Origin: Candidatus Oxydemutator sp.
GTDB taxonomy: Bacteria; Pseudomonadota; Gammaproteobacteria; Poriferisulfidales; Oxydemutatoraceae
Direction: 5' to 3'
DNA length: 64,000 nucleotides
Assembly: GCA_965203445.1 (NCBI GenBank)
Contig: OZ241883.1
Span: 1,920,001-1,984,000 of the forward strand
Shown here: positions 3,225-63,595 of the stretch, in pieces
How positions within the stretch are numbered: position 1 is the stretch's first letter
How the letters are laid out: every line of letters starts with the position of its first letter
Program-made: the position numbers and the translations under genes
Notes under the pieces: model-generated
What the model saw: only the letters and a program-made list of their open reading frames with translations
Database searches by the model: none
Told to the model about the DNA's origin: nothing

Positions 3225-4008
3225 TGTACTGCTCGGTCAGCACGTGGCGCGGGTCGGTAAAGATGGTCTCGGTCTTCTCGACCTCGACGAGGTTGCCCAG
3301 GTGGAAGTAGGCGGTGCGCTGCGACACGCGCGACGCCTGTTGCAGCGAATGGGTGACGATAAGAATCGCGTAGTTTTGCCGTAGTTCGTCTATCAATTCC
3401 TCGATCTTGGCGGTGGCTATCGGATCGAGCGACGAGCACGGTTCGTCCATCAGGATGACTTCCGGGTTGACCGCGATCGCGCGTGCGATGCACAGCCGCT
3501 GTTGCTGACCGCCCGACAGGCCGGTACCCGGCTGGTTCAGGCGTTCTGCGACCTCGTGCAGCAAACCGGCCTTTTCGAGGCTGGTGTGGACGATTTCGTC
3601 GAGTTCGTAGCGGTCCCTGGCGAGGCCGTGGATGCGCGGCCCGTAGGCGACGTTGTCGTAGATGGACTTCGGGAACGGGTTGGGCTTCTGAAACACCATG
3701 CCGACGCGCGCGCGCAACTCTACGGTGTCCATCCTGCGGTCGTAGATGTTCTTGCCGTCGAGGGTCACGGTGCCGCTGACGCGACAGTCCTCTATCGTGT
3801 CGTTCATGCGGTTCAAGCAGCGCAGGAAGGTGGATTTGCCGCAGCCCGACGGCCCGATCATCGCGATGACCTCGTTGTTGGCGATGTCGAGGCTGACGTT
3901 CTTGATCGCATGCTTGTCGCCGTAGTAGACGTTCATGTCGCGCACCTGCATGTATGGATTGGCGACGGCGATGGTGCCGACGGTCTCGATTTTTTCCTGG
4001 CTGTCCAT
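3205..4008 (-). CDS. pstB: Phosphate ABC transporter ATP-binding protein
   Basis: [45 protein letters not shown]-terminus. Confidence 0.96.
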
Positions 4009-4041
4009 TCGTTTGTCCGTCCGGTTGCGTTTGGCGCCGGC

Positions 4042-5352
4042 CTACCAGCGGTTCTCGAACGTCTTTCTGAGTATCACCGCGCTCAGGTTCATGACGATCA
4101 AAAACGCCAGCAACACCAGCGTGGCGGCGGCCGCGAGTTCGGTAAAGGAACGTTCGGCCTGGTTCGCCCACAGGTAGATTTGCACCGGCAGGGCGGTCGC
4201 CGGATCGGTGAAATTGCCGGGCACGTCGACGATAAACGCGACCATGCCGATCATCAGCAGCGGTGCACTTTCGCCGAGCGCCTGGGCCATGCCGATGACG
4301 GCGCCGGTCAGGATGCCCGGCATCGCCAGCGGCAGCACGTGGTGGAGTATCGTCTGCGTCGGCGACGCGCCGACGGCCAGCGCGGCCTGGCGTATGGACG
4401 ACGGCACCGCCTTCAGCGCGGCGCGCGCGGCGATGATAATCGTGGGCAGGGTCATCAGCGCGAGCACGATGCCGCCGACCAGCGAGGCCGAGCGCGGCAG
4501 TCCGAAAAAGTTCAGGAACACCGCGAGTCCGAGCAGCCCAAAGATGATCGAGGGCACCGCCGCCAGGTTGTTGATGTTGACCTCGATGAGATCGGTCAGG
4601 CGGTTTTTCGGCGCGAACTCCTCGAGGTAGACGGCGGTCGCGATGCCGATGGGGAAGGACAGCAAAAACGCGACCAACAGCGCGAAGAACGAACCGGTCA
4701 ACGCGCCCAATATGCCCGCCTGCTCGGGTTCCCTGGAATCGCCGCGCGTGAAGAAATTGCGGTTGAGGCGCCGCTCGATCCTGCCGGCGGCCGCCAGTTC
4801 GTCGAGCCACGCGATCTGCTCGTCGGTGACGCGGCGGCTGTCCTGCGCGAGCGCGCGGTCTATCCTGCCTTTGGCGAACAGGTCGGCCTCGTCGTCGGCC
4901 AGCGCGTAGAACGTCACCGCGCCGCGCCCGATCAGCGACGGGTCGGCGGCGATTTGCGCGCGCAGATCGTAGGCGGCGCCGGAACTGACGAGTTTGCGCA
5001 GGGCCTTGCGCTCGCGCCGCGAGCGCGCCTCGGGAAACAGCGCCAGCAGCGAACGGTTGACGAGGGCGCGGTAGTCGGCGCGCTCGAGCGCCTCTTGCGA
5101 GGGCTGCCGCGAGGCGTCGTATCCGGGGAAGTCCTCCGCCGCAAGGACGACGTCGAGACGGAAGAACGTCTGCGAGAAGGCGCCGTGGCCGGCCATGATG
5201 AGCGACGAGAACAGCAACACCACGAACGACAGACCGAGCACGACCGCCGCCAGCCCCACCCTCCGAAAGCGTCTTTCCGCGCGGTAGCGGTGCGCCAGGC
5301 TGGCGCGCACCTTGGTCAAGGTCGGCGTCGCGGCCTTATTCGTATTGTTCAC
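4042..5352 (-). CDS. pstA: Phosphate ABC transporter permease PstA
   Basis: YLEEFAPKN, EVNINNLAAVPSIIFGLLG, ALGESAPLL motifs; start codon overlaps pstC end and is uncertain. Confidence 0.92.
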   Translation of the reverse strand: MNNTNKAATPTLTKVRASLAHRYRAERRFRRVGLAAVVLGLSFVVLLFSSLIMAGHGAFSQTFFRLDVVLAAEDFPGYDASRQPSQEALERADYRALVNRSLLALFPEARSRRERKALRKLVSSGAAYDLRAQIAADPSLIGRGAVTFYALADDEADLFAKGRIDRALAQDSRRVTDEQIAWLDELAAAGRIERRLNRNFFTRGDSREPEQAGILGALTGSFFALLVAFLLSFPIGIATAVYLEEFAPKNRLTDLIEVNINNLAAVPSIIFGLLGLAVFLNFFGLPRSASLVGGIVLALMTLPTIIIAARAALKAVPSSIRQAALAVGASPTQTILHHVLPLAMPGILTGAVIGMAQALGESAPLLMIGMVAFIVDVPGNFTDPATALPVQIYLWANQAERSFTELAAAATLVLLAFLIVMNLSAVILRKTFENRW

Positions 5353-6971: not shown

Positions 6972-7399
6972 ACTACCCGTTCGTGCTTGATGCTTCGGTG
7001 GCGTTGTCGTGGCTGCTGCCGGACGAAAGTAACGCGGCCGCGGACTCGCTGCTTGATGAAGTCATCCTGCAACCGGCCTTGGCCCCGGCGCTGTGGTCGT
7101 TCGAGATGAACAACGCGGTGCTCGCGGCGCGTCGCGCCGGGCGCATTGACGAGACCATGCACGAACGGCTGCGTGGCCACGTGGCCGTCCTGCCGGTCGA
7201 GTTCGACGCGATTTTTTCGCACGCGACGATGGAAAAGGCCGCGTCTCTTGCGATGCGCCACGACTTGAGCGTGTACGACGCCGTTTATCTGGAACTGGCG
7301 GCGCGCCGCTCGCTGCCGCTGGCCACGCTGGATCGCGCCTTGGCGAACGCCGCGCGCGCCGAGCGGATCGCCGTGTTGCCCGCGGCCGTCCCTCGATAG
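6968..7399 (+). CDS. vapC: VapC-family PIN-domain toxin
   Basis: VLDASVALSW, LSVYDAVYLELA, LATLD PIN motifs; overlaps antitoxin stop. Confidence 0.88.
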   Translation: MNYPFVLDASVALSWLLPDESNAAADSLLDEVILQPALAPALWSFEMNNAVLAARRAGRIDETMHERLRGHVAVLPVEFDAIFSHATMEKAASLAMRHDLSVYDAVYLELAARRSLPLATLDRALANAARAERIAVLPAAVPR

Positions 7400-8637: not shown

Positions 8638-9000
8638 CGCTGTTTTCAACGGTGGTGCACGGACAACACTTTGCGCGATCTGTTGGTGGACCTGGCCAAC
8701 GACTTGCGCAAGGAAGGGGCCGTGGACGAGAGTGAGTGTTTTATTGACGGGATGTTCCCCCCGGCCAAAGGGGTCGGCGCGGAGATAGACGGGACCGAGC
8801 GCGGGAAAGGCGTCAGAATCATGGCCATAGTGGATCGGCATGGTCTGCCGTTGTCGGTCAGTACGCACGCGGCGAACCACCACGAAGTGACCTTGGTGCG
8901 GTTGAGTTTTGACTTTTACATGATAGAAGCGAAGCCGAAGAACCTGATAGGGGATTGCGCTTATGATGGCGACGGCTTGGATGAAGATCTGCGCGCTTGA
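8638..9000 (+). pseudogene. IS5-family transposase internal fragment
   Basis: Nearly identical peptide (FQRWC.DNTLRDLLVDLANDLRKEG...GLPLSVSTHAANHHEVTLV) to the intact IS5 transposase at 62813-63586; both ends missing. Confidence 0.88.
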
Positions 9001-9160: not shown

Positions 9161-12100
9161 CTAATAATCGCACAGCCGTCCGTCCACCGTCATCAACAGC
9201 GACACCCGCAGCTTGCGCCCGGGGTACAGCTTGGCCACACCGTCCCGGTAGCACAGCATCTGCTCGCGACAGTCTTCGAGCAGTTTTTGCGGGTCGTAGC
9301 GGCGGTGGGTTTTGTAGTCCACGAGCCAGGCCGCGTCGGCGCTGACGCACAAGCGGTCAAGCGTGCCGAAGACTTGTTCGTCGTCGCGCTGGTAGAGCAG
9401 CGGCATCTCGTTGAACACGCGCTGATACAGCCCGTCCGTGAACAGCTCGGACAATCGCGGTTCGCGCACCAGCTCCCACGCCTCGCGCACCCAGGCGTCA
9501 AGCTGGTCATGCGGTTCGTGTCGTTCGTCGGCGAGGCGCCGCCGCAGCGCGTCGGGATCGCCGCAGGCGCACGTGTTCAAGAGTTCCAGAGCGCGGTGGA
9601 TGAGTGCGCCGCGCGCCGCGCCGTCTTCGTGTTCCGAACCATGGGCGTGGCCGGGGGCGCCGTCGCCGCGCCGCTCGATTCGGCTCGGGTTGCGCTCGAC
9701 CGCGATCCGAGGTGCCGCGACCTCCGTCGTCGGCGCCGTCGTCTCTTGCTCCGCGTGCCGCTCCTGAGTGGGCGCTTGGCGCGAGTGCGCGCCGATGCGC
9801 GCAAGCGCGTCGTCGCCGAGCAGGCCGTCGTCGCCGGCCGCGTCGCGCAGCCGTTGATACCAGTTCGCCTCGCTTGCCTTGCCGTTCGCGGACACGAACA
9901 GATACTGCTTCGCGCGCGTCAACCCTACGTAGAGCAGGTTGACGTCTTCGCGTTCCTCGTTCCGTTTGCGTTTTTCCACCAGTTCGCGCAACGCGCCGCC
10001 GCGCTCGCTGGCAACGGGCAGCAACGCCAAATCGCGCGGCCTCTCCTCGGCGGACGGCCAGTCCACCAGCGCCCCGTAGGTTTCCTTGCGCGATCTGCGA
10101 AAGGCGCAATCCACCAGGAACACGATCGGTGCCTCCAATCCCTTGGCGCCGTGTATGGACAACAGTCGCACGCAGTCGCCGTCGTCCGCCGCCGGCGCGT
10201 CGGCGCGCGCACCGGCGAGGCGTCTCGCGTTTTTCAGATGCGTGAGCAGGCGCGCGCAGTCGGGGTAGCGGCCGCTGTGCAGGTCGAGCGCGTATTCGAG
10301 GAACGAGTCGAGATTGCGGCGCACGCGCTCGCGTTCCTGCTCCGGCACCGACGCGCGGTAGCGGCGCACCAGGTCGGCCTCGTTATAAATCCGATCCAGC
10401 AGGTCGTGCGGCGGCAGCCGATCATACAGTCGTTCCCACTCTTCCAGCTGCTCGGCGATGGCATGCCACGGCGCGCCGCCGCCGTTCCCGCCGAGGCGCG
10501 CGAGCTTGTCACGCCAGCAATCGCCCGGCGCGCGAGCGATGGCAAGCAATTGTTCGTCGCCCAGCGAGTAAATCGGCGAGCGCAGCACCTGGGCGAGGGC
10601 GTCGTCGCGGTATGGGTTTCGCAGAAATTCCAGCAGTGCGATCAGGTCCGACGCCTCCAGGCTGGTCACAAAGTTTTGCTCGCGCGCGCTGACCGAGGGA
10701 ACGCCGGCGGTGCGCAACGCCTGCAAGAACACCGGATAATGCGTCGTCTGTCGCGCGAGTATCATCGCGTCGCGCCACTGAAACTCGCGCACTTGTTCGT
10801 GTTCTCTGATGGGAAGTCGGTTTTCCCTGAGTTGGACGATGGTGCGCGCGATTTCTTTCGCCTCGCGCCGCGCCGCGAACTGCGATTCCGCGAGCGGCTC
10901 CCGCAACGGGTTGCGCCATTCCTGCTGCGGCGCCTTTTCCGCCTGGTGCAACTCGAACACGCGCACGCCGCCGTCGGTGTCGCAAAACGTGTCGTGCGTC
11001 GCAAAACCGGCGGGCGCCGTCGGGCCTTCTTTTCCGGCGGCCCCGCCGAAAACGCGGTTGACGAACTCGATCACGGCGCGCGCCGAGCGGCGCGACTTGT
11101 CCATTGTCGGGTGCAGGCTGTCCGGACGTCTTTGCCGCAGCCAATCGTCGGCTTCGTGCTGCAATTCCGGGTCGGCTCGGCGGAAACCGTAGATGGACTG
11201 CTTGACGTCGCCGACGATGAACAGGCTGCCGCCCTCGCGCGACACGATCTCGCAGAGCAAGGGTTCCAGCAGGCGCCATTGGGTCGGATTGGTGTCCTGG
11301 AATTCGTCAATCAACACGTGCTCGATGCGGTTGGCCAGGCGTTCCTGCGGGTCGTGCCCATCGCGCAGCAGCCGTTCGCCCATGAACTCGAGGTCGTCGA
11401 AATCGAGCAGGCCGTTGTCGCGCTTCAGATCGGCGTATATGTCGCAAAGGCGCCTGCCGGCGCGCCACCACGCGGCGTTCAGCCGCTCGTTGTCGCGTCG
11501 CAGCAGGCGTTCGTGTACATTGCCGAGGTCCTCGACGAGCGCGCGATGTTCCAGGCTCAGCCGTGCCGCGTTTTCCTCGCCGAGCGCTTTGACCAGCGGT
11601 TTGCCGCCGGGTTCGCGGCGCGGTTTGCCGCCGGCTTGATAAAAGCATGCCCGCAATTCCACGAAGGCTGCGCGGTCTAGCGTCTCGCGCACCGCCAGCG
11701 CATGCAGCCGTTCGGCCCGTCGAAGATTGGTCTCCGTCTTGTGTCTTGCAATCAATTCGGCGTAGCCCGCGACGCGCGCGCGCGCCTGCTCGCTCCAGAA
11801 TCCCCCCAGCACTTCGGCGCAGCCGCCGCCATCCGCCGATTTCGGCCGCTCGCCGCCGCCTTGCACGTAAGCCTGCCAATCGTTTCGGTGCCGCAGAAAC
11901 TCCTCGAGCGCGCCGCGTGCGTTGTCTACCCCGTTGCACAGATCGAACAGCGTGTCGAGCGCGCGCGCGCATTCGTCGTCCCCGTGCGTGACTTCGGCGA
12001 ACAGCTGTTCCACCGCCTGCACGCGCAACAAGCCTTCGAGCGCCTCGGCCAGCTGAAAGTTCAGCGGCGCCTCGGTCTGCATCGGAAACAATCGCAGTAT

Positions 12101-12484
12101 CTGCTGACAGAAGGCGTGGAAAGTCGTGATCTGCACCGGTTCCGGCGCACGCAGCAGTTCCTCGTACAGGTTCATCGCGCGCGCGCGAACCGGCCCCGTA
12201 TCACGCGCGCCGATCTCGCGCAGCGACTTGCGCAGATCTTCGGCGTTCATCGCACTCCACTCCAGCAGCCGCGCCATCAAGCGCTCGCGCATCTCGTCGG
12301 CGGCCTTGTTCGTGAACGTTATCGCGAGAATCGAGGCCGGCACGCGCCGCTCCAACAGCAGGCGCAACAGGCGCGACACCAGCAGCCAGGTTTTGCCGGT
12401 GCCCGCCGACGCCGACACGACGCCGCTGGCTTCGGGCGCCAGGATCGCAAGGGCGTCGGTCGCGGTGTCTTTCGAGGTTTTCAT
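9161..12484 (-). CDS. addA: AddA/RecB-like UvrD-family helicase-nuclease
   Basis: ASAGTGKT, ITFTNKAA, IDEFQDTN, VGDVKQSIYGFR, SIHGAKGLE, LYVGLTRA; C-terminal nuclease DRL...VDYKT. Confidence 0.82.
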   Translation of the reverse strand: MKTSKDTATDALAILAPEASGVVSASAGTGKTWLLVSRLLRLLLERRVPASILAITFTNKAADEMRERLMARLLEWSAMNAEDLRKSLREIGARDTGPVRARAMNLYEELLRAPEPVQITTFHAFCQQILRLFPMQTEAPLNFQLAEALEGLLRVQAVEQLFAEVTHGDDECARALDTLFDLCNGVDNARGALEEFLRHRNDWQAYVQGGGERPKSADGGGCAEVLGGFWSEQARARVAGYAELIARHKTETNLRRAERLHALAVRETLDRAAFVELRACFYQAGGKPRREPGGKPLVKALGEENAARLSLEHRALVEDLGNVHERLLRRDNERLNAAWWRAGRRLCDIYADLKRDNGLLDFDDLEFMGERLLRDGHDPQERLANRIEHVLIDEFQDTNPTQWRLLEPLLCEIVSREGGSLFIVGDVKQSIYGFRRADPELQHEADDWLRQRRPDSLHPTMDKSRRSARAVIEFVNRVFGGAAGKEGPTAPAGFATHDTFCDTDGGVRVFELHQAEKAPQQEWRNPLREPLAESQFAARREAKEIARTIVQLRENRLPIREHEQVREFQWRDAMILARQTTHYPVFLQALRTAGVPSVSAREQNFVTSLEASDLIALLEFLRNPYRDDALAQVLRSPIYSLGDEQLLAIARAPGDCWRDKLARLGGNGGGAPWHAIAEQLEEWERLYDRLPPHDLLDRIYNEADLVRRYRASVPEQERERVRRNLDSFLEYALDLHSGRYPDCARLLTHLKNARRLAGARADAPAADDGDCVRLLSIHGAKGLEAPIVFLVDCAFRRSRKETYGALVDWPSAEERPRDLALLPVASERGGALRELVEKRKRNEEREDVNLLYVGLTRAKQYLFVSANGKASEANWYQRLRDAAGDDGLLGDDALARIGAHSRQAPTQERHAEQETTAPTTEVAAPRIAVERNPSRIERRGDGAPGHAHGSEHEDGAARGALIHRALELLNTCACGDPDALRRRLADERHEPHDQLDAWVREAWELVREPRLSELFTDGLYQRVFNEMPLLYQRDDEQVFGTLDRLCVSADAAWLVDYKTHRRYDPQKLLEDCREQMLCYRDGVAKLYPGRKLRVSLLMTVDGRLCDY

Positions 12485-12528
12485 ACGGCGGCAATGCGGG
12501 GATAATAGCAGGCCGCCCGCGAACGCCG

Positions 12529-14406
12529 ATGCCTAGCCGACCTCGAAAACAGCGGTACGACGCCGCCGACATAGAAATCCTGAGTGGCCTCGAACCGGTG
12601 CGCAAGCGCCCGGAGATGTTCACCGACACGTCCGACCCGACGCATCTCGTGCAGGAGGCGGTGGACAACGGCGTGGACGAGGCGCTGGCCGGGTACGCGA
12701 CGCGGGTCGAGGTGACGTTGCACGACGACGGTTCGGTCACGGTCGCCGATGACGGGCGTGGTATGCCGGTGGACCCGCACCCGTCGCGCAAACGGCCCGG
12801 TGTCGAGGTCATCCTGACGACGCTGCACGCCGGCAGCAAGTTCTCGGGGCGCCACTACCATTTCGCCGGCGGCCTGCACGGCGTCGGTATCTCGATAGTC
12901 AACGCGCTGTCGTCGCGCCTTGAGGTGCGCGTTAAGCGCGGCGGCAAGGAATACGGCATGGCTTTTGAGAGCGGGCGCCGGACCTCGGAGTTGAAGGTCC
13001 TGCGCGGCCTGAAAAAGCGCGACACCGGCACCGAGATCCGCTTTTGGCCCGACCCGGAATTTTTCGACGGGTCCGAGTTCCAGACCGACAAGCTGAAGAA
13101 CCTGCTGAAAGCCAAGGCCGTGCTATGCGCCGGCCTGACGACCCGTCTTTGCTCGGAGGACGCGGGCGAGCTGCAACGCTGCCGCTACGAGGACGGCCTG
13201 CGGCAGTATTTCACCGAGCGTTGCGGCGACGCCGCGGCGTTGCTGGAGCAGGATTTCTGCGGGCGCCACGAGTCCCAGGCGCAGGAGTTGCATTGGTGCC
13301 TGAACTGGTTCGACGCCGACGCTGGCGCGCCCGCCGAGAGCTTCGTCAATCTCGTGCCGACGCCGCAGGGCGGCAGTCACGTGTCGGGGCTGCGCACCGG
13401 GCTGACCGAGGCGCTACGCGAGTTCGCCGAGCTGCACAACCTGCTGCCGCGCGGCGCTTCTTTCGCGCCCGACGACGTCTGGCGGCGCATCGGCTTCGTG
13501 CTGTCGCTGAAGCTCGAGCAGCCGCGTTTCGCCGGCCAGACCAAGGAGCGTCTGGCGTCGAGAGAGGGCGGCGCGTTGACGCAAAAGCTGGTGCGCGACG
13601 CTTTCAGCCTGTGGCTCAGCGCGCAGCCGGCGACCGGCGGGGCGCTGGTCGAGCTGGTGCTGGAGGACGCGCAGGCGCGCAAACGCAGGAAGACGACGAA
13701 GCGCGCGCGCGTTTCCGGCCCGCGCCTGCCCGGCAAATTGGCCGACTGCCTTGCCGGCGACGTCGAGGAGTCCGAGCTGTTTTTGGTCGAGGGTGATTCC
13801 GCCGGCGGCTCGGCGAAGCAGGCGCGCGACAAGGCGTTTCAGGCGGTGCTGCCGCTGCGCGGCAAGATCCTGAACACCTGGGAGAGCGACACCGGCGAGA
13901 TCCTCGACTCGAAGGAGATCAACGACATTGCGACCGCGATAAACGTCGCGCCGGGCGGCGCCGACCTGAGCCGCCTGCGCTACGGCAAAATCTGCGTCCT
14001 CGCCGACGCCGACTCCGACGGCCTGCATATCTCGACGCTGCTGATCGCGCTGTTCCTGAAACATTTCCGCCCGCTGGTCGAGGCGCGCAGAATCTTCGTC
14101 GCGATGCCGCCGTTGTTTCGGATAGACGCCGGCAAAGACGTGTACTACGCACAGGATGAAAAAGACCGCGACGCGTTGCTGGCGAAGATAACCGGCGGAG
14201 CGCGGGTAATTCGCTTCAAAGGGTTGGGTGAGATGAACCCCGCGCAACTGCGTGAATCCACTATGGCGCCGGCGAGCCGTCGCCTGATGCAACTGACCTG
14301 CGACGACGATCCGCTGCCGTTGATGAACATGTTGCTCGAAAAGAAACGCTCGCCGGAGAGAAAGCGCTGGCTCGAGGCGGAAGGCGCACGCGCCGATCTT
14401 GTCTGA
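12529..14406 (+). CDS. parE: DNA topoisomerase IV subunit B
   Basis: GLEPVRKRP, GGLHGVGISIVNALS, VEGDSAGGSAKQARD, PLRGKILN, DADSDGLHI, RFKGLGEMN; no GyrB insertion. Confidence 0.95.
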   Translation: MPSRPRKQRYDAADIEILSGLEPVRKRPEMFTDTSDPTHLVQEAVDNGVDEALAGYATRVEVTLHDDGSVTVADDGRGMPVDPHPSRKRPGVEVILTTLHAGSKFSGRHYHFAGGLHGVGISIVNALSSRLEVRVKRGGKEYGMAFESGRRTSELKVLRGLKKRDTGTEIRFWPDPEFFDGSEFQTDKLKNLLKAKAVLCAGLTTRLCSEDAGELQRCRYEDGLRQYFTERCGDAAALLEQDFCGRHESQAQELHWCLNWFDADAGAPAESFVNLVPTPQGGSHVSGLRTGLTEALREFAELHNLLPRGASFAPDDVWRRIGFVLSLKLEQPRFAGQTKERLASREGGALTQKLVRDAFSLWLSAQPATGGALVELVLEDAQARKRRKTTKRARVSGPRLPGKLADCLAGDVEESELFLVEGDSAGGSAKQARDKAFQAVLPLRGKILNTWESDTGEILDSKEINDIATAINVAPGGADLSRLRYGKICVLADADSDGLHISTLLIALFLKHFRPLVEARRIFVAMPPLFRIDAGKDVYYAQDEKDRDALLAKITGGARVIRFKGLGEMNPAQLRESTMAPASRRLMQLTCDDDPLPLMNMLLEKKRSPERKRWLEAEGARADLV

Positions 14407-14424
14407 TGTCCGCGCCGCCGCATT
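14385..14424 (+). repeat. 40-bp direct repeat, left copy (parE stop / HAD start junction)
   Basis: CGCACGCGCCGATCTTGTCTGATGTCCGCGCCGCCGCATT; 38/40 identical to 17736-17775. Confidence 0.92.
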
Positions 14425-14539
14425 TGCGGTTTTGGGGGTCGGTGCAGCGCCGCTGCATTGAGTGTCTTGCGTTATCATAGTGTGTGGCGATGCTTATCGA
14501 ATGCCCGCCGCGCGAACCATGCCGGAAGAGAATCCACAT

Positions 14540-15637
14540 ATGACTGCCGCGTCGGACGCTGAGCAAACCGAGCAGGTTGAAGGTCTGGGGGGAGATCAGC
14601 TTGGTTTATTGGGTGGCTACCCGATAGACGCCTTGATGATCCGCACCGAGGCTCGTACGGTACATGACGTATTGCGCCGAATAGAAAAGGGCATGTTCGT
14701 CATGGACCCCGATTTTCAGCGTGACTTTATCTGGAACAAAGACAAGCAGAGCAAGCTGATCGAGTCGGTCATGATGAGAATCCCTCTGCCGGTGTTCTAT
14801 CTGGCCGAAGACGACAATGGACGTATGGTGGTGGTGGATGGTCTACAAAGGCTTTCGACTTTTCAGCGTTTTGTGAACAATGATCTTCGTCTCAAGCTTC
14901 CAGAGCATTCAGAATTGGACAAACAACACTTCCGGGATTTGCATCCCAAGCTCCAGAATCGCGTCGAGGATTGCAACCTGATCCTCTATGTCATTGATGC
15001 CAAAGTTCCCGAGCAAACCCGCCTGGACATCTTTGAGCGCGTCAACAGCGGCGTGCCTCTGACTCGGCAGCAGATGCGCAACTCCTTGTACATGGGGGAG
15101 GCGACGCGATTTCTGAAGAAGCAATCCCAAGAGGAAATCTTTGTCAAGGCAACCGGAAGCAGCCTGAAGTCCTCGACGATGAGAGATCGTGAATTTGTCA
15201 ACCGGTTCTGCTCGTTTCAGATCCTGGGGCTTGAGGATTACAAAGACATGGATCAGTTTTTGGCGGCCGGCCTTAAGAAAATGAATGATCAGCAGGCTTC
15301 TTTGCCGGCGTTGTCCTTGCAGCTCAAGACCACGCTCGAAAACAATTACCGCCTGTTTGGTAGGCATGCTTTCAGGAGACATCGTCGAGACCAGGAGAGA
15401 CGCAGCGTGATCAATGCCTCTCTTTGGGACGTAATGTCAACGGGTCTTTCCCGCTACCCGCAGGGACTGGTGTTGAGCAAGGCCGATGAGATGAGGAGCG
15501 CGTTTTACCGACTCATAGAGAATGAGGAATTTGTGCCCGCGATCATGCACAGTACCAGCAATATCAAGCGGATAAAATGCCGTTTCTCGATGGCCGACGC
15601 GATGTTCAAAGAGGTGTTCGGTGCTGACACGGCTTGA
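14540..15637 (+). CDS. DUF262 (ParB/Srx-like) protein, Menshen NsnA-like
   Basis: PDFQRDFIW, QSKLIES..MRIPLP, VVDGLQRLST, IFERVNSG DUF262 motifs; start could also be 14519. Confidence 0.85.
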   Translation: MTAASDAEQTEQVEGLGGDQLGLLGGYPIDALMIRTEARTVHDVLRRIEKGMFVMDPDFQRDFIWNKDKQSKLIESVMMRIPLPVFYLAEDDNGRMVVVDGLQRLSTFQRFVNNDLRLKLPEHSELDKQHFRDLHPKLQNRVEDCNLILYVIDAKVPEQTRLDIFERVNSGVPLTRQQMRNSLYMGEATRFLKKQSQEEIFVKATGSSLKSSTMRDREFVNRFCSFQILGLEDYKDMDQFLAAGLKKMNDQQASLPALSLQLKTTLENNYRLFGRHAFRRHRRDQERRSVINASLWDVMSTGLSRYPQGLVLSKADEMRSAFYRLIENEEFVPAIMHSTSNIKRIKCRFSMADAMFKEVFGADTA

Positions 15638-16775
15638 GCTGAGCCTCTTCAAATGTTTTAAGCGACTGCGGCTGCCCTTGGCGCCGCTGACCCTTCTGAC
15701 CGGGGCGAACGCCTCCGGCAAGTCGTCCGTCTTGCAGGCCCTGGTGCTGCTGCACCAGACTATGCGCGAACACGAATGGGCGACGCGGCTTGCGCTCAAT
15801 GGAACCGTAGTCCGGTTGGGCGCCACGCCGGACGTCGTCAACGAGGTGTTCGGGCGGGGCGGCTTCGAGATCATGTTGACGGATGACGAGAATGACTACG
15901 GCTGGACGTTCGAGGGAGACAGGCGCGACATGTCTCTGGCGGTTCGGCGCGTCGTTGTCAATGAGCAGGCGCTCGAGACGCCACGTGAGTTGCGCTACTT
16001 GTTGCCCCTCGACAAAAAATTGGAAGAGGCGGTCGCATCGCTGGTCGGGCGCTTACACGGCTTGACTTATATCACTGCCGAACGGGTGGCACCTCAGGAG
16101 GCGTACGCCCTCGAGGATCCGCTGGTCGTGAACGTCGTGGGGCCTAAGGGGGAGCACGCGGTGAGCGTGTTGCATTGGGGGCGCGATGCAGACGTGCCGG
16201 ACGCTCTTGCTTTGCCGGAAATTCCCCCCAGACGATTTCACCAGATCGAGGCGCGCATGCGAACTTTCTTTCCGGGCTGCTCCTTGGACGTACAACGGGC
16301 GCCGCGCACAGGCGCCGTGACTTTGGGTTTGCGCACGTCGGATGACACGGAATTCCACCGCCCGGTTCACACCGGATTTGGCCTTACGCAGTGCCTGCCC
16401 ATCGTGGTGGCCGCCCTGTCCGCGTCCAAAGGCGATATTATTTTGATAGAAAACCCGGAAGTGCATCTCCATCCCGCTGGCCAAGCGCTGATGGGGGAGT
16501 TCATGGCCGAGGTCGCGAGTGCCGGAATGCAGATATTCGTCGAGACGCACAGCGATCACGTGCTGAACGGCGTTCGGCGTGCGGTTAAACAAGGTCTGCT
16601 GGCTCCGGATCAAGTGGCGACTCATTTTTTCCGCCCGCGTTCCGCCGGCGACCCCCAGGTAATCAGCCCCGCAATGGACGCTTTCGGCAACCTCGACTCC
16701 TGGCCGCAAGGGTTTTTCGACCAATTCGACAAGGATGCAAACTATTTCGCGGGCTGGGGGGAAGAAGGAAACTGA
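15621..16775 (+). CDS. ABC/AAA ATPase with C-terminal DUF3696, Menshen NsnB-like
   Basis: Walker A GANASGKS, GFGLTQ signature, IENPEVHLHP Walker B/D-loop, ETHSDH, C-terminal GNLDSWPQGFFDQ. Confidence 0.87.
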   Translation: MLTRLELSLFKCFKRLRLPLAPLTLLTGANASGKSSVLQALVLLHQTMREHEWATRLALNGTVVRLGATPDVVNEVFGRGGFEIMLTDDENDYGWTFEGDRRDMSLAVRRVVVNEQALETPRELRYLLPLDKKLEEAVASLVGRLHGLTYITAERVAPQEAYALEDPLVVNVVGPKGEHAVSVLHWGRDADVPDALALPEIPPRRFHQIEARMRTFFPGCSLDVQRAPRTGAVTLGLRTSDDTEFHRPVHTGFGLTQCLPIVVAALSASKGDIILIENPEVHLHPAGQALMGEFMAEVASAGMQIFVETHSDHVLNGVRRAVKQGLLAPDQVATHFFRPRSAGDPQVISPAMDAFGNLDSWPQGFFDQFDKDANYFAGWGEEGN

Positions 16776-16776
16776 C

Positions 16777-17730
16777 GTGGAGCTTCTCTTCAACGACCTC
16801 TCGATCCATGGACAGTTTCACGACCTTGCGACCTTCGAGCAGGCGATTGGGCGCGTGATGTCCATTCGGGAACTGGCGCGTCGCTATGGACGGGAATTGC
16901 AGTGCCACCGCAACGTTGCTTCTGCATCCGTGATGAGTGATATGCCGATGCAGAAGGCGGTTCAGCGCCTGAGCAGGGACAAGTGTACTGCGCTGATGCT
17001 CTGGCTGACGCGCCACGGGCCTTTCTGGGAGGACGTTCGGCGACATGGTGGCGACGATTTGCTGGAATGCAATGGTGGCGTTGTCACGAACCACGCGCTC
17101 GGGGAGGCGGCTTATTGCCTTCTGCACGGCATTGACTGCCACGTCGTGAGTATGGAGCCGTCCGCGTGGCTGTCCTCGCCCCTGGAGGTGGATTGGCACG
17201 AGAATGAATCGGTGAAGAGCGTCGGTGTTCCCAACTATTGGAAAGTGAACAAGGTGCAGGCCACCCTCGACGAGGCTTCCGTGCCGCCTTCCACGTGGGA
17301 CGACGTGCAGCGGGAGGCAAAGCAGAAATACTTCAACCTGACGTTTCTGCCGGACAGTTTTGCGCCGTTGCAAGGACACCCCTTCGGCAAAAGCGCGGCC
17401 AGGAATTTGTTGCTGCGTCTGGCCGTTCTGCACGAGCTCAAAAATTGTTCTGACGAGCACGGCAATCGCACCGCCAAGGGGCACGAGTTATACCGGAAAC
17501 ATTTTACCGGTGACAACGCTTGGTTTTCCGACTCCTCGGACACCGAGAAGGCCACTTTCAGGAAGGAACTCACGTTTCCGCATCCGGAGATTGCCGGGGC
17601 TGCTTTGTTCTGCACGTGGCACGGCAAGGTACGGGCGCCTCAACTGCCGTTGCGCGTCCACTTCTCGACGCCAGGTGCCGACAAGCCGCTCTACGTGGCG
17701 TACGTCGGACCTAAGATCACCAAGAAGTAG
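16777..17730 (+). CDS. Hypothetical third-gene effector (NsnC-like position), possible RelE-like nuclease C-terminus
   Basis: GTG start 1 nt after ATPase stop; C-terminal WHGK...LRVHF...LYVAYVGPK pattern; function inferred from context. Confidence 0.6.
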   Translation: MELLFNDLSIHGQFHDLATFEQAIGRVMSIRELARRYGRELQCHRNVASASVMSDMPMQKAVQRLSRDKCTALMLWLTRHGPFWEDVRRHGGDDLLECNGGVVTNHALGEAAYCLLHGIDCHVVSMEPSAWLSSPLEVDWHENESVKSVGVPNYWKVNKVQATLDEASVPPSTWDDVQREAKQKYFNLTFLPDSFAPLQGHPFGKSAARNLLLRLAVLHELKNCSDEHGNRTAKGHELYRKHFTGDNAWFSDSSDTEKATFRKELTFPHPEIAGAALFCTWHGKVRAPQLPLRVHFSTPGADKPLYVAYVGPKITKK

Positions 17731-17735
17731 AAAGA

Positions 17736-17775
17736 CGCACGCGCCGATCTTGTGTGATGTCCGCGCCGCCACATT
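17736..17775 (+). repeat. 40-bp direct repeat, right copy
   Basis: CGCACGCGCCGATCTTGTGTGATGTCCGCGCCGCCACATT; encodes ARADLV-stop like the ParE C-terminus and supplies the HAD ATG. Confidence 0.92.
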
Positions 17776-18686
17776 CGATGACGCCGCCGTTTTCGCAGAA
17801 CGTGATCGCGATGATCTGGGATTTCGACAAGACTTTGATTCCCGGAGACATGCAGCGCGTGTTGTTCGACGCCTACGGCGTGGACGAGGACGAGTTCTGG
17901 CGCGACGTCAACGCGCTGCCCGAACGCTATCGCGAGCGCGGTTGCGGGCAGGTGACGGTGGAGTTGTTGTATTTGAATCGGATACTCGACTACGTCGCCG
18001 CCGGCAGGTTTCCCGATTTATCGAACGAGCGGCTGGTGGAACTCGGACGCGGTATCGCGTTTTATCCCGGCTTGCCCGACTTTTTTGAGCGCGTCAAGAC
18101 GCTGCTCGAGGCCGAAAAATACCGGCGCCATGAATTGAAGATCGAACACTACGTCGTCAGCACCGGGCTCAAAAAACTGATCGAGGGCAGCGCGCTCGCC
18201 GCGCATCTCGACGGCATCTGGGGCTGCGAGTTTCTCGAGAGCGACGACGAGCCGCGCCGCATTGCGCGCATCGGCTACGTGCTAGACGATACCACCAAGA
18301 CGCGCGCGGTGTTCGAGATCAACAAGGGCGTCAACAAAAACGCGCGCATCAGCGTCAACGACTCGATAGGGCACGACAAGCGCCGCGTGCCGATTGCGCA
18401 GATGATCTATATCGCCGACGGTCCCAGCGACGTGCCGGTGTTCTCGGTCGTCAAGCGCGAAGGCGGCAAGACGTTCGGCGTGTTCAGCCCCGAGCGCCAC
18501 GACGTCGCGTGCCGCCTGTTGGAGCAGGAGCGCGTGCACGCGATCGCGCGCGCCGACTACCGGGCGGGCACCGACGCCTCGATGTGGCTCGAGCGCGCGC
18601 TCGCCCAGATCGCCGACCGCGTCATAGAGCGGCGCACCCGGTTGTTGGAGACCAGCGTCGGCCGAGCGCCGACCCACGCCGGCTGA
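17757..18686 (+). CDS. HAD-superfamily hydrolase
   Basis: Motif I WDFDKTL, motif II VSTG, motif IV YIADGPSDVP. Confidence 0.85.
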   Translation: MSAPPHSMTPPFSQNVIAMIWDFDKTLIPGDMQRVLFDAYGVDEDEFWRDVNALPERYRERGCGQVTVELLYLNRILDYVAAGRFPDLSNERLVELGRGIAFYPGLPDFFERVKTLLEAEKYRRHELKIEHYVVSTGLKKLIEGSALAAHLDGIWGCEFLESDDEPRRIARIGYVLDDTTKTRAVFEINKGVNKNARISVNDSIGHDKRRVPIAQMIYIADGPSDVPVFSVVKREGGKTFGVFSPERHDVACRLLEQERVHAIARADYRAGTDASMWLERALAQIADRVIERRTRLLETSVGRAPTHAG

Positions 18687-18689
18687 GCC

Positions 18690-20963
18690 TTGGCGCGCCG
18701 CGTGAAAAAGAGCGCGCCGGAGACGGTGCGCCGGCGCGTCGAGCAGACTTCGATAGAGCGCTTCGCCGAGCGCGCCTACCTGAACTATTCGATGTACGTG
18801 ATCCTCGATCGCGCGCTGCCGTACCTGGGCGACGGCCTGAAGCCGGTACAGCGGCGCATCGTGTACGCGATGTCGGAACTCGGCCTGAATGCCGGCACCA
18901 AGCCGAAGAAATCGGCGCGCACGATAGGTGACGTCATCGGCAAATACCATCCGCACGGCGACGGTGCGAGTTACGAGGCAATGGTGCTGATGGCGCAGCC
19001 GTTCGCGTTTCGTTATCCGCTGGTCGAGGGGCAGGGCAACTGGGGATCGGCCGACGACCCGAAGTCGTTCGCCGCGATGCGCTACACCGAGTCGCGCCTG
19101 ACGCCGTATTGCGGCGCGTTGCTCGACGAACTCGACCAGGGCACCGTCGCCTGGCGCCCGAACTTCGACGGCACGTTGCAGGAACCGGAAATCCTGCCGG
19201 CGAAACTGCCGAACGTGCTGCTCAACGGCGCCTCCGGCATCGCCGTCGGCATGGCCACCGACGTCCCGCCGCACAACGCGCGCGAGGTCGTGGCCGCCTG
19301 CGTCAGGCTGTTGCAGAACTCGCGCACCGGCACCGACGAGCTGCTCGCGTGCGTGCGCGGGCCGGATTACCCGAGCGGCGGCGAGATCATCAACGCGCGC
19401 GATGAGATCCGCCGCATCTACGAGACCGGCGCCGGCATGATACGAGTGCGCGCGACCTACGAGATCGAGGGGCGCAACGTCGTCGTCACGTCGCTGCCGT
19501 TCCAGGTCGCGGGCGGGCGCGTCATGGCGCAGCTGTTCGCGCAAATGCAGGGCGACATGCGCGGCCTGATCAAGGACCTGCGCGACGAGTCCGACGAATC
19601 TCATCCGGTGCGCATCGTCATCGCGCCGCGCGCCCGCGACGTGCCGGCGCACGATCTGATGTCGTTTCTGTTCGCCGCCACCGACCTCGAGCGCGGTTAC
19701 CGCGTGAACCTGAACGTCATTGACGTGGACGGCAAGCCGCGCGTGATGAACCTGAAGGAGATGCTGCGGGCGTGGCTTGAGTTCAGGATGGAGACGGTGC
19801 GCCGCCGCCTGCAATGGCGGCTTGCGAAAGTCGAGGAGCGTCTCGAGATCCTGCGCGGGCTGCTGACGGTGCATTTGAACGCGGATGAGGTCGTGCGCAT
19901 CGTGCGCCGCGAGGAGCGCCCGGAAGAAGTCCTGAAGAGGCGTTTCGACCTGAGCGACAACCAGGCGCGCGCGATTTTGGACATGCGCCTGAGGCGGCTG
20001 AACCGGATAGAAAAGATCGAAATCGAGCGCGAACTCGGCGAACTCGACGCCGAGCGCGGCCAGCTCCGGGTGCGCCTGTCGTCGCCGCGCCGCCTGAAGA
20101 CGCTGGTCAAAAAGGAGTTGCAGCGCGCCGCCGAAATCTGGGGTGACGAGCGCCGCACGCGGCTGGTCGAACGCACCGGGGCCAGGGCCTACAAGCCGCG
20201 CGTGGCCGCCGCCTCCGAGCCGCGGACCGTGGTGCTGTCGCGGCAGGGCTGGGTGCGCGCGCTCGGTGGCCGCGACGTTGATCCGCGCGAGTTGGAATAC
20301 CGCGCCGGCGACGGCTTTCTCGACTGTGCCGAAGGCGAGTCCGGCGACACCGCGCTGTTCCTCGATTCCGCCGGGCGTTGCTACAGCCTGCCGGCGCATA
20401 CGTTGCCGTCGCGCGGGCGCAGCGAACCGTTGAGCAGTCGTTTCCGCGTCGCCGACGCCGCCGATTTTGTATGCGTGTTGAGCGGCGACGGCGGCGAACG
20501 CTGCCTCGTCGCAAGCAGTTTCGGTTACGGATTTGTGACGACGCTCGAGCAACTGTCGGCGCGCAGCCGCTCAGGCAAGCAGGTCATGAGCCTGCCCGCC
20601 GGCGCCGTCGCGCTCGGCGCGTTCAAGATGGCCGATCCGTCATCGTCGTACGTCCTGGTGCTCACGTCGGAGGGGTATCTGTTAGTGGTCGCAGCAGTCG
20701 AGATACCGGAACTTGCGAAAGGCAAGGGCAACAAGATCATCCAGATACCGCGCGAGCGCCTGCGCGAGCGGCGCGAGCACTTGGCGCACGCCGCCTGCAT
20801 GGGCGAGGGCGCCGTCGCCGAGTTGCACGCGGGCCGGCGCGTCAAGCGGTTCGGCTTCGATGAATTGCAGTATTATATCGGCGCCCGCGGTCGGCGCGGG
20901 CGCATGCTGCCGCGGCCGTGGCGCCGCCCCGACCGCGTTCGCATCATCGAGGAGAACCAATGA
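18690..20963 (+). CDS. parC: DNA topoisomerase IV subunit A
   Basis: [31 protein letters not shown] active-site Tyr, [14 protein letters not shown] in the CTD. Confidence 0.94.
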
Positions 20964-21844
20964 GAATAGCCCTGTTTCTGGCGACCAACCTGGCGATAGT
21001 CTTCGTCCTCAACCTCACCCTGAGCGTGCTCGGCGTCGAGCATTGGCTGACGCAGACCGAGGCCGGCATCAACGTGACCGGCCTGCTGATCATCTCGGCG
21101 GCGTTCGGCATGATCGGTTCGCTGGTGTCGCTGGCGCTGTCGAAGTCCATGGCCAAGCGCTCGATGGGGGTGCGCGTGCTCACGCCAAAACGGGCGAATC
21201 CGACCGAGCACTGGCTGCTCGAGACCGTCGCGCGGCAGGCGCAACGGGCCGGCGTCGCGACGCCCGAGGTCGGCGTTTTTTCATCGCCGCAGCCAAACGC
21301 CTTCGCCACCGGCATGTTCCGCGACAAGGCGCTGGTCGCGGTCAGCGAGGGCCTGCTCGCGCAGATGGAGCGCGACGAGGTCGAGGCGGTGCTGGGGCAC
21401 GAGGTCAGCCACGTCGCCAACGGCGACATGGTTACCTTGGCCTTGATCCAGGGCGTCGTCAACACGTTCGTTATTTTCCTGTCGCGCCTGGTCGGACACG
21501 TGGTGGATCGCGCGGTGTTCAAATCGCGCGGCTTCGGCCCCGGCTATTTCGTCACCGTGATCATTACCCAGATAGTGCTGTCCATCTTTGCGACGATGAT
21601 CGTGATGTGGTTTTCGCGTCGCCGCGAGTTTCGCGCCGACTACGGCGGCGCGAAACTCGCCGGACGCGACAACATGATCGCCGCGCTGCGGCGGCTGCAA
21701 CGGGCGCATGCAAGCGAGGATCTGCCGGGCGAGATGGCCGCGTTCGGCATCTCCGGCGCCGTGTCCGGCGGCGTGCGCAGACTGTTGACGAGCCACCCGC
21801 CGCTTGCGCGGCGCATCGCCGCGCTCGAGCGCCTCGAGACCTAG
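20960..21844 (+). CDS. htpX: Membrane zinc protease HtpX
   Basis: [47 protein letters not shown]. Confidence 0.95.
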
Positions 21845-61577: not shown

Positions 61578-62703
61578 TGACCTACCTCCCCTCAAGGAAT
61601 ACGAGGCGGGCGCCCGCATGGCGGATTTGTCTCGCAAATAGGGGGTCAGCGAGCAGAGTTTCTACCGCTGGAAGTCGAAGTATGGGGGAATGGATGTAAG
61701 CGAAGCGAGGCGCTTGAAGCAGTTGGAGGTGGAGAACGCCAAGTGGAAGCACCTGCTGGCGGAGGCGATATTAGACAAGAAGGCGTTGCAGGAGTTGGTA
61801 TCAAAAAAGTGGTGACGCCTGGGGCGCGCCGCCAGAACGTGCGGCACTTGGTGCGCCGCGACGTGGCGAGCGTGCGTCGGGCAGCACGTCCCTTGATGGG
61901 TTTGGTGGGATTGAGTCGTTCGGTGGCGCAGTATCGGCGCCACCGGCGAGGTCACGAGGCATTGCGAAGGCGTCTTTATGGAGTTGGCGCGGAAGTATCC
62001 GCGCTACGGGTATCTGACGCTGCACGGGCTGCTGCGTGCCGAAGGGCTGGTGGTGAACCGCAAGCGCACCTATCGCCTGTATTGCGAGCTAGGCTTGCAG
62101 GTGCGCCGGCAGCGGCGCAAGAAGCTGTCGCGCCCGCGCGTGGCGATACCGGCGCCCGGCGCCGCGAACCAGCACTGGTCTATGGACTTCGTATCGGATC
62201 AGTTGGCCTGCGGGCGCCGCTTTCGCATTCGGGGCGTCATAGACGACTACTCGCGCGAGTGCGTCGGTCAGATAGTGGGCACTTCGATAGGTAGCGAGCG
62301 CGTGGTTCGTTTCCCGGATGCTCTTGGCCAAAAGCGCGCGCTGCCCAAGACGCTGGTATGCGACAACGGGAGCAAGTTCGCCAGCAAAGCAATGTGTCTA
62401 TGGTCGAGAAGCAGCGGTGTGGAGTTGCACTTCATCCAACCCGGCAAGCCGGTGCACAATGTCTATGTGGGGCCTATGTGGAGAGTTTCAACGGGTTTGT
62501 GCGACGCCTGCCTGAACCAGCCCTGGTTCGCGGATTTGGGGGACGCCAAGCAGCTCATTGCCGACTGGCGCCATCACTACAACCACGTCAGGCCGCATAG
62601 TTCCTTGGGCTATGTAGCGCCAGCGGCATTCCTGAAGAAGGCCGCAGCCTGATACAATGGAATTTCTTTCAATGACTGCGACCCTAATTTAGGGGGAAGG
62701 TCA
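61578..62703 (+). mobile_element. Degenerate IS3-family (IS407-group-like) element
   Basis: TGACCT...AGGTCA ends; orfA lacks N-terminus and has TAG at 61639 (FYRWKSKYGG motif remains); A6G frameshift site at 61803-61809; orfB with WSMDF, DDYSRE, DNG, YN.VRPHSSLGY, frameshifted. Confidence 0.87.
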
Positions 62704-62761: not shown

Positions 62762-63595
62762 GAACCTATCTCAAAATCAAATATCTGCTGATTATCGTGT
62801 ATGATCTATTGCATGGTACGATTGAGCGACGAGCAATGGGAACGCATACACAAGCACTTCCCAGAAGAGAACATCCCACCGGGTCGGGCCGGTCGCAAAC
62901 CAGTGCCGACAAGGAAGGTTCTCGAAGGCGTCCTGTGGATCCTCAACACGGGTGCGCAATGGAAGATGCTGCCGCAATGTTATCCGAATTACAAAACAGT
63001 TCACCGTCGTTTTCAACGGTGGTGTATGGACAACACCTTGCGCGATCTGTTGGTGGACTTGGCTAACGATTTACGCAAGGAAGGGATCGTGGACGAGAGG
63101 GAGTGTTATATAGATGGGATGTTTGCCGCGGCCAAAGGGGGTGGCGCCGAGGTGGGTAGGACGAAGCGCGGAAAAGGCGTCAGAATCATGGCCATAGTGG
63201 ATAAGCATGGTCTGCCGTTGTCGGTCAGTACGCACGCGGCGAACCATCACGAAGTGACCTTGGTGCAGTTGAGTTTTGACTTTTACATGATAGAGGCGAA
63301 GCCGAAGAACCTGATAGGGGATCGCGCCTATGATAGCGATGGTTTGGATGAGGAATTGCGCGCTTCGGGGATAGAGATGATAGCCCCGCACAAACGCAAT
63401 CGTAAGAAACGCAAGACCCAGGATGGTCGCAGACTGCGCCGTTACGAAAGACGCTGGATAGTGGAGAGAACTTTTGCATGGCTACAGTGGCAACGACGAG
63501 TGTTAACACGGTGGGAGTATTACGCGCATAACTTTTTTGGTTTTGTGCAGCTGGCTGCCATGATGATATTGATTAGGCAATTTTGAGATAGGTTC
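62762..63595 (+). mobile_element. IS5-family insertion sequence, apparently intact
   Basis: Perfect 16-bp TIR GAACCTATCTCAAAAT, flanked on both sides by AT; single transposase ORF. Confidence 0.9.
62813..63586 (+). CDS. IS5-family transposase
   Basis: LSDEQW, GVLWILNTGAQW, YIDG, GDRAYDSD, Y..RWIVERTFAWL. Confidence 0.92.
   Translation: MVRLSDEQWERIHKHFPEENIPPGRAGRKPVPTRKVLEGVLWILNTGAQWKMLPQCYPNYKTVHRRFQRWCMDNTLRDLLVDLANDLRKEGIVDERECYIDGMFAAAKGGGAEVGRTKRGKGVRIMAIVDKHGLPLSVSTHAANHHEVTLVQLSFDFYMIEAKPKNLIGDRAYDSDGLDEELRASGIEMIAPHKRNRKKRKTQDGRRLRRYERRWIVERTFAWLQWQRRVLTRWEYYAHNFFGFVQLAAMMILIRQF

Follow-up and report, generated by a model that had tools for sequence, protein, structure and literature searches.

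How does a complete defence cassette come to lie inside an essential operon and leave every gene of that operon whole? We asked this of a locus in a 64,000-nucleotide stretch of the Candidatus Oxydemutator sp. genome (contig OZ241883.1, positions 1,920,001–1,984,000 of assembly GCA_965203445.1; the whole stretch is called the window here, and positions are counted from its first letter). The locus holds a three-gene Menshen cassette, flanked by a short direct repeat, between the topoisomerase IV gene parE and a HAD-family hydrolase gene that is followed by parC. With modest confidence, we read the cassette as a one-off, recombinase-independent insertion, duplicative and not site-specific, that survived by sparing the operon.

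The edges of the cassette are marked by two copies of a 44-nt direct repeat (14381–14424 and 17732–17775, + strand), found with a repeat finder and by reading of the sequence; they are identical at 41/44 positions, lie 3351 bp apart and gave E = 3e-13 in self-BLAST. A pattern covering both copies matched the 2,378,814-bp single-contig genome twice, on the forward strand only (reversed control, 0 matches). The repeat does not extend past 44 bp, as local alignments of the 136–185 nt outside its ends scored 16 and 18 (shuffle median 16, 95th percentile 20). Of the duplicated target, 26 bp come from the end of parE and 18 bp from the beginning of HAD. In the left copy, the last parE codons (GARADLV) run into the TGA stop at 14404–14406 and an overlapping ATG at 14406 that opens MSAPPH; here the parE tail and stop are functional and the first six HAD codons are not. 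The right copy holds a non-functional parE tail (KDARADLV, TGA at 17755–17757) and the functional ATG at 17757 that opens the real HAD gene, MSAPPHSMTPPFSQN. Mismatches fall at repeat positions 4, 23 and 40, and the longest perfect block is 18 bp. At one mismatch the functional parE copy retains the Gly codon of the congeners, while the remnant has Asp; the other two mismatches are silent in the functional copies. The pattern fits drift. Deleting one repeat together with the 3307-bp insert (3351 bp) yields a TGATG-coupled parE–HAD junction resembling those of relatives.

Contigs built independently of the genome assembly span the junctions. In a set of public metagenome runs (X1–X6), an independently built 12,730-bp contig from X5 covers 13998–18600 with 0 differences and spans both junctions; X5 and X6, in which the insertion is present, are probably the source sample. 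The right junction is also spanned by a contig from X6 and by one from X1, a different study (17429–17946, ~90% identity). An assembly artefact or chimera is effectively refuted by these contigs, and we regard its probability as negligible.

Between the repeats lie 3307 bp with three overlapping genes in the canonical order nsnA–nsnB–nsnC, all on the + strand and co-oriented with the operon. The first, nsnA (14462–15637; open reading frame from GTG 14462, likely start ATG 14501), matches the PADLOC NsnA profile (2e-109, residues 56–386 on profile 42–383 of 385), and its product is of the ParB/DUF262 type with a GmrSD_N domain (Pfam PF03235, 1.9e-24). It overlaps by 17 nt with nsnB (15621–16775; PADLOC NsnB, 3.8e-102, 1–376 on 1–342 of 345), which encodes an ABC-type ATPase with AAA_15, AAA_21 and a DUF3696 tail (Pfam, 1.2e-11 for the tail). 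After a further overlap of 41 nt comes nsnC, the gene for the effector subunit (16735–17730; PADLOC NsnC PDLC03896, 5e-119, 16–331 on 2–319 of 319), whose TAG stop lies 1 nt ahead of the right repeat and in frame with the parE-tail remnant. PMC12065111 proposes that NsnA senses DNA, that NsnB is a regulatory ATPase and that NsnC acts mostly as an RNase effector, and describes type I as having an NsnA without an extra N-terminal domain. Judged by gene content, the cassette is a complete type I Menshen system, with presumed anti-phage activity. That paper infers extensive gene transfer of Menshen, and its main text does not use the terms 'mobile', 'integrase', 'direct repeat' or 'horizontal'. 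The GC fraction is 0.49–0.63 across 14400–17799, compared with 0.645–0.70 in parE and 0.655–0.705 in parC. In a species-level genome collection the nearest NsnC relatives are ≤64% identical and scattered over many phyla. The phage collection contained no related DNA, and among plasmids only 3% of the query, a DUF262 stretch, was matched, in two plasmids.

The host genes on both sides are intact. parE, topoisomerase IV subunit B, occupies 12529–14406 (+, 625 aa; TIGR01055 parE_Gneg, 789.5 bits against a cut-off of 723, with its Pfam domains), the HAD-family gene 17757–18686 (+; PF12710, PADLOC PDC-S34, and synteny) and parC, topoisomerase IV subunit A, 18690–20963 (+, 757 aa; TIGR01062 parC_Gneg, 882.5 bits, cut-off 628.9). 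The HAD start lies 26 nt past the nsnC stop. A scan for sigma-70-type matches in 12000–21500 returned one (1.8 expected), upstream of parE at 12478–12506 (+, TTTTCA-17-GATAAT, 9/12), which is a consensus match only. Terminator-like matches in a scan at the locus were not above chance (11, with 9.5 expected). Because the cassette is co-oriented, compact and without a terminator, the Menshen genes are probably expressed as part of the parE transcript. At the left repeat, the copied HAD start, coupled to parE, opens a remnant reading frame of 24 codons (14406–14480, +; MSAPPHLRFWGSVQRRCIECLALS, then a stop) that ends 20 nt ahead of the first nsnA ATG; it may act as a ribosome relay that hands translation over to nsnA.

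A preliminary description of this locus had reported a 40-bp repeat (14385–14424 and 17736–17775), which indeed matches at 38/40 positions and is slightly shorter than the true 44 nt. The rest of its anatomy held up as well. ParE codons, TGA and overlapping ATG were read directly in both copies, the repeat has only two copies in the whole genome, and removal of 3351 bp, reproduced on the sequence, restores the coupled junction. The three genes it took to be of defence type are all full-length Menshen profile matches; parE and HAD are whole, as it had proposed, and so is parC; and the integrase, transposase and terminal inverted repeats that it found missing from the insert were likewise not detected by Pfam, PADLOC or the repeat finder.

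Its proposal that the repeats are an attL/attR-like pair served by a trans-acting recombinase fared less well. Genome-wide, PF00589 is found only in XerD (TIGR02225, 376.6 bits) and XerC (TIGR02224, 336.6 bits), and there are no PF00239 matches, the family of serine recombinases. The best dyad in the repeat (9-nt arms, 6–8-nt spacer) pairs at 6/9, the most frequent value among 2000 shuffles; the test is a weak one. An integrase-less, site-specific element of the cis-mobilizable or satellite kind could still have used a recombinase supplied by a phage, plasmid or helper island. Its expected layout, in which an intact gene is followed by cargo and a displaced gene tail, as in islands that target gene 3' ends, is the layout seen here, and the tight cargo boundaries would suit it, as would the Menshen cassettes that sit behind other genes with duplicated tails (see below). 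However, the genome offers only XerC and XerD, the repeat lacks dyad symmetry, no other coding cargo occurs at the junction in 13 relatives, and no vector was found in the phage and plasmid collections. We consider such an element distinctly unlikely.

Integration by XerCD at a dif-like site would draw on the only tyrosine recombinases present, and elements of this type (integrative mobile elements exploiting Xer recombination, IMEX) typically carry no integrase. The repeat nevertheless lacks the two-arm inverted structure of such a site. A proteobacterial dif motif gave no genome match at ≤3 mismatches, although the dif of this genome may differ from that motif. This route is highly improbable. 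Nor does the insert have the anatomy of a transposon: it contains no transposase domain and no terminal inverted repeats (no inverted repeat joined the insert ends among the 25 longest pairs), and the duplication measures 44 bp. DDE transposases do occur elsewhere in the genome, the nearest being a fragment ~5.4 kb away. Transposase traces in the window comprise this DDE_Tnp_1 fragment (8743–8994, in a 136-aa open frame), an rve-type gene (62161–62451) and a DDE_Tnp_1 gene (63110–63562), none of them adjoining the cassette. With an 18-bp perfect block, which is below the RecA homology threshold of roughly 30 bp given in PMC2884548, precise loss of the cassette by homologous recombination should now be inefficient. 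As part of the reading that we hold with modest confidence, the repeats would now be decaying scars and no working att site.

Is the site empty in relatives? In a family set of 19 species genomes the HAD gene is present in all. It directly follows parE in 13 relatives (the congeners G001–G003, and G004, G006, G007, G008, G010, G011, G013, G014, G016 and G018, the last on a contig that stops before parC). Coding cargo at the junction was found in 0/13, and all three congeners are empty. Eight of these junctions were printed, and stop and start overlap in them as TAATG, TGATG, ATGA or GTGA. The position of the HAD gene between parE and parC is shared by most of the family; the five genus g3 genomes carry it elsewhere, and in four genomes examined from family f2 parE abuts parC without it. 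The HAD gene itself looks like an older insertion into the parE–parC junction. It matches a PADLOC candidate defence family (PDC-S34, 8.4e-63). A HAD-based search of metagenome contigs gave 69 loci, 68 of them confirmed by tblastn at 45–60% identity except for one very short fragment; none of the 68 has parE, parC or Nsn genes beside HAD, so that the whole set is uninformative on this junction; many of the contigs are short. The loci that bear on HAD placement are L041–L044, L125–L128, L130 and L144–L211. The exact junction pattern had no match in metagenome contigs.

Closer relatives were found in the metagenome runs. A 1677-bp contig from X2, another study (depth 18.9), follows 13839–14421 with 40 differences and then 17790–18599 with 79; at the joint, 26 other letters stand between 14421 and 17790, and HAD stays in frame. 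The site is empty in this relative, which has ~92% identity. Together with the congeners it supplies the empty alleles that the preliminary description had suggested looking for. Low-depth (2–4x) X2 contigs with ~88% identity over parts of the cassette may stem from other organisms. A sponge metagenome of a third study, X1, has the occupied state, with cassette contigs of ~89–96% identity (five records, 159 differences/1960 nt) and flank contigs with 55 differences/540 nt. A 541-bp X1 contig runs from nsnC through the right repeat into HAD (17429–17946); within its parE remnant, 2 nt are deleted at 17751. Divergence in X1 is about equal for cassette and flanks, which indicates that the insertion is old, at least as old as the split from this ~91%-identical lineage, and that it has probably been inherited since. 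Since no other coding cargo was seen in the 13 relatives and the insertion is shared with the X1 lineage at flank-like divergence, the idea of an exchangeable hotspot is unsupported, and an old scar is the better reading of what had been called an att site. The contigs of X5 and X6 contained no empty joint; contigs drop rare variants, so this is no evidence against excision.

The distribution of occupied and empty sites also bears on homology-driven transfer, the second option in the preliminary description. The cassette might circulate among relatives by RecA-dependent exchange, Campbell-type or flank-mediated, together with a junction copy or with parE/HAD flanks, and the repeats would then be host/donor hybrids. 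Its presence in the X1 lineage and absence from the equally close X2 lineage would suit such exchange, and the genome encodes RecA, ComEC, DprA and a YifB/ComM-type ATPase. However, the same uptake gene families occur in non-competent control genomes, and the flank-like divergence of the X1 cassette argues for descent. Import of flanks from a divergent donor was rejected, as identity profiles against G001–G003 contain no divergent block and the GC dip at the parE 3' and HAD 5' ends is also present in empty relatives; parE and HAD beside the cassette show neither raised divergence nor a GC shift of their own. A replacement tail from another lineage was rejected likewise, as mismatches pooled from five repeat cases have no synonymous excess (codon positions 8/6/12; 8 synonymous versus 14 non-synonymous codons), small as these numbers are. 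Under homology-driven transfer, moreover, the first duplication would have had to arise in some earlier founding event. We regard it as rather unlikely.

Duplications at the same junction recur in relatives. In the sister genus g4, G016 (L040) carries a head-to-tail 272-bp duplication (267/272 identical) that takes in ~215 bp of the parE 3' end and ~57 bp of the HAD 5' end and holds no insert; by our reading of the sequence, its joint shows a GGA-type microhomology. Such a cargo-free tandem duplication counts against the att-type reading. In G010 (L036) a 175-bp repeat, 85.7% identical, surrounds a 184-bp non-coding segment. This segment belongs to a dispersed repeat that has 44 matches in G010 but does not match G006, G013 or G016. 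Among 20 other copies of the element in G010 (L213–L232), two lie between direct repeats (of 137 bp and 25 bp), seven adjoin tandem repeats and 11 have nothing of the kind. G006 (L037) has a complex array with several partial copies of the parE 3' end, and self-comparison of G013 showed no junction duplication. By these sequences, the same junction has been duplicated independently in the sister genus. Two further arrangements were noted nearby: inverted copies of the ~170-bp dispersed element flank the HAD gene of G010 (L036, 9762–9945 and 8472–8642), and the ~950-bp HAD–parC spacer of G011 (L133, about 3500–4450) is a tandem array whose units repeat the parC start (MASSKQHELNG...).

These observations are consistent with the following course of events. 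A promoterless, foreign 3.3-kb cassette would have been inserted once, in an ancestor of the lineage, at the coupled parE-stop/HAD-start, and the insertion event itself would have copied the 44-bp target, from 26 bp before the end of the parE stop to 18 bp after it, to both sides. In one candidate route, replication would switch its template to the foreign DNA and later return; the stepwise increase of inserted length at this junction (0, 184 and 3307 bp) supports it. A second candidate is illegitimate recombination assisted by homology, or displacement of a gene tail. PMC2884548 describes homology-facilitated illegitimate recombination during natural transformation as one homologous anchor plus one illegitimate join, 100- to 100,000-fold more frequent than purely illegitimate recombination. 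Selection would then have acted as a filter, in that only a junction-duplicating, co-oriented and terminator-free insert could persist in an operon ending in the essential parC. The cassette would have survived because the duplication keeps parE, HAD and essential parC intact and because it is itself co-oriented, compact and free of terminators.

We asked whether Menshen cassettes elsewhere have similar edges. In 67 Menshen loci with full flanks, all from outside the family, seven direct-repeat pairs were found at 2.5–5 kb spacing. Four of the seven, all short, bracket the cassette; the other three are 300–900-bp repeats in two loci and do not. In L056 (3285–3533 / 7025–7273) the final 249 bp of an alpha/beta-hydrolase gene are repeated. 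In L116 (3558–3630 / 6976–7047) a 73-bp repeat takes in the final 69 bp of glyA and a further 4 bp, and Menshen lies between glyA and a YjeF-type gene. L092 has a weaker 41-bp pair (3479–3519 / 7003–7043), known from a flank scan only, with Menshen between urea-transporter and urease genes. In all three, the upstream housekeeping gene is co-oriented and a copy of its tail lies 24–34 bp past nsnC; no integrase was seen in their flanks. Cassettes bracketed by an upstream gene tail occur in at least two other phyla (Dehalococcoidia and Vicinamibacterales genomes). These parallel cases duplicate different host genes over 41 to 249 bp, and no single att specificity explains them. The Oxydemutator genome itself contains 12 unique two-copy direct repeats 0.5–40 kb apart, several of which bracket defence-like genes and duplicate the 3' end of a neighbouring gene. 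Outside the window, L135–L138 of this genome hold genes for Fic, a trypsin-like peptidase, N6/N4 DNA methylases, AAA_21 ATPases and a ThsB-TIR-like protein within unique direct repeats of 55–145 bp, each a copy of the 3' end of an adjacent gene.

A broader view, which we put forward only tentatively, takes the 44-bp duplication for the trace of a general process that works without a recombinase, such as template switching during replication, and that seeds promoterless defence cassettes behind expressed housekeeping genes in integrase-less symbiont genomes. It is possible, if doubtful, that the junction series (0/184/3307 bp inserted, with 272-/175-/44-bp duplications) and the Menshen cases in Dehalococcoidia and Vicinamibacterales would then share one mechanism.

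Several points weigh against a one-off, recombinase-independent insertion. The mechanism is read from scars, and no intermediate, donor or junction microhomology has been established for the cassette. The cargo ends very tightly, 1 nt past the nsnC stop here and 24–34 nt past it in L056, L116 and L092, which would be easier to explain by a defined mobile unit or by a replacement gene tail supplied by the element, as in integrase-borne islands. The empty X2 lineage is no more distant from this genome than the occupied X1 lineage; either X2 lost the cassette, possibly by recombination between the repeats, or the cassette moved between lineages, and both would mean some mobility. Alternatively, X2 may have branched off before the insertion. 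Lastly, the repeat-bracketed cassettes elsewhere in this genome were not confirmed as simple insertions by comparison with congeners, where their flanks are absent or, in G001, lie ~29 kb apart and in different orientation.

The surroundings of the operon are housekeeping genes and not a defence island: an AddA-like helicase-nuclease, a pst-type phosphate ABC-transporter, neuB and, behind parC, an M48-family peptidase. The helicase-nuclease gene (9161–12484, − strand), divergent from parE, encodes a 1107-aa UvrD-type helicase with a C-terminal PD-(D/E)XK nuclease domain.

What the locus establishes is that an anti-phage system, complete by sequence, can sit unbroken in the essential, translationally coupled parE–HAD–parC operon of an integrase-free genome. 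The recurring duplication footprint, at this junction in relatives and around Menshen in other phyla, is a lead beyond this locus. If the general process were real, junctions within essential-gene operons would be viable landing sites for immune genes. If the mechanism were common, part of the flow of defence genes in host-associated bacteria would bypass classical mobile elements, and surveys keyed to integrases, transposases or defence islands would miss such cassettes. Literature searches found no publication that combines parE/parC with integrated defence islands at a hotspot, and a search for integrase-less, direct-repeat defence cassettes gave nothing relevant; we make no wider claim from this.

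How does the locus compare with known systems? As a Menshen system, and as an islet that lacks an integrase and carries a displaced gene tail, it belongs to known kinds; the unusual part is the location. Islands that target gene 3' ends, such as prophage e14 in icd of E. coli, leave displaced gene tails, and cis-mobilizable elements (CIMEs) lack a recombinase of their own. The locus shares with them an intact host gene, cargo and a downstream remnant of the gene tail, and with CIMEs also the missing recombinase. In contrast to them, it has no integrase in either element or genome, its repeat spans a gene–gene overlap and not the end of one gene, the repeat has no dyad, and relatives show duplications of the same junction without cargo. 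Template-switch rearrangements of the type named fork stalling and template switching/microhomology-mediated break-induced replication (FoSTeS/MMBIR) are a model whose name and properties come from eukaryotic genomics. The graded series at this junction, from a 272-bp duplication with 0 bp (G016) through 175 bp with 184 bp (G010) to 44 bp with 3307 bp at this locus, would be in keeping with it, and this analysis found no case in bacteria that carries foreign genes as cargo. Homology-facilitated illegitimate recombination likewise lets foreign DNA enter without a recombinase; in contrast to the present locus, the passage in PMC2884548 concerns replacement of a segment and not a flanking duplication, and no donor anchor tract is visible here. 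Compared with type I Menshen systems, finally, the cassette has the same three genes, the same order and the same domain types, with full-length PADLOC matches; the sole difference is its setting, embedded in a topoisomerase IV operon.

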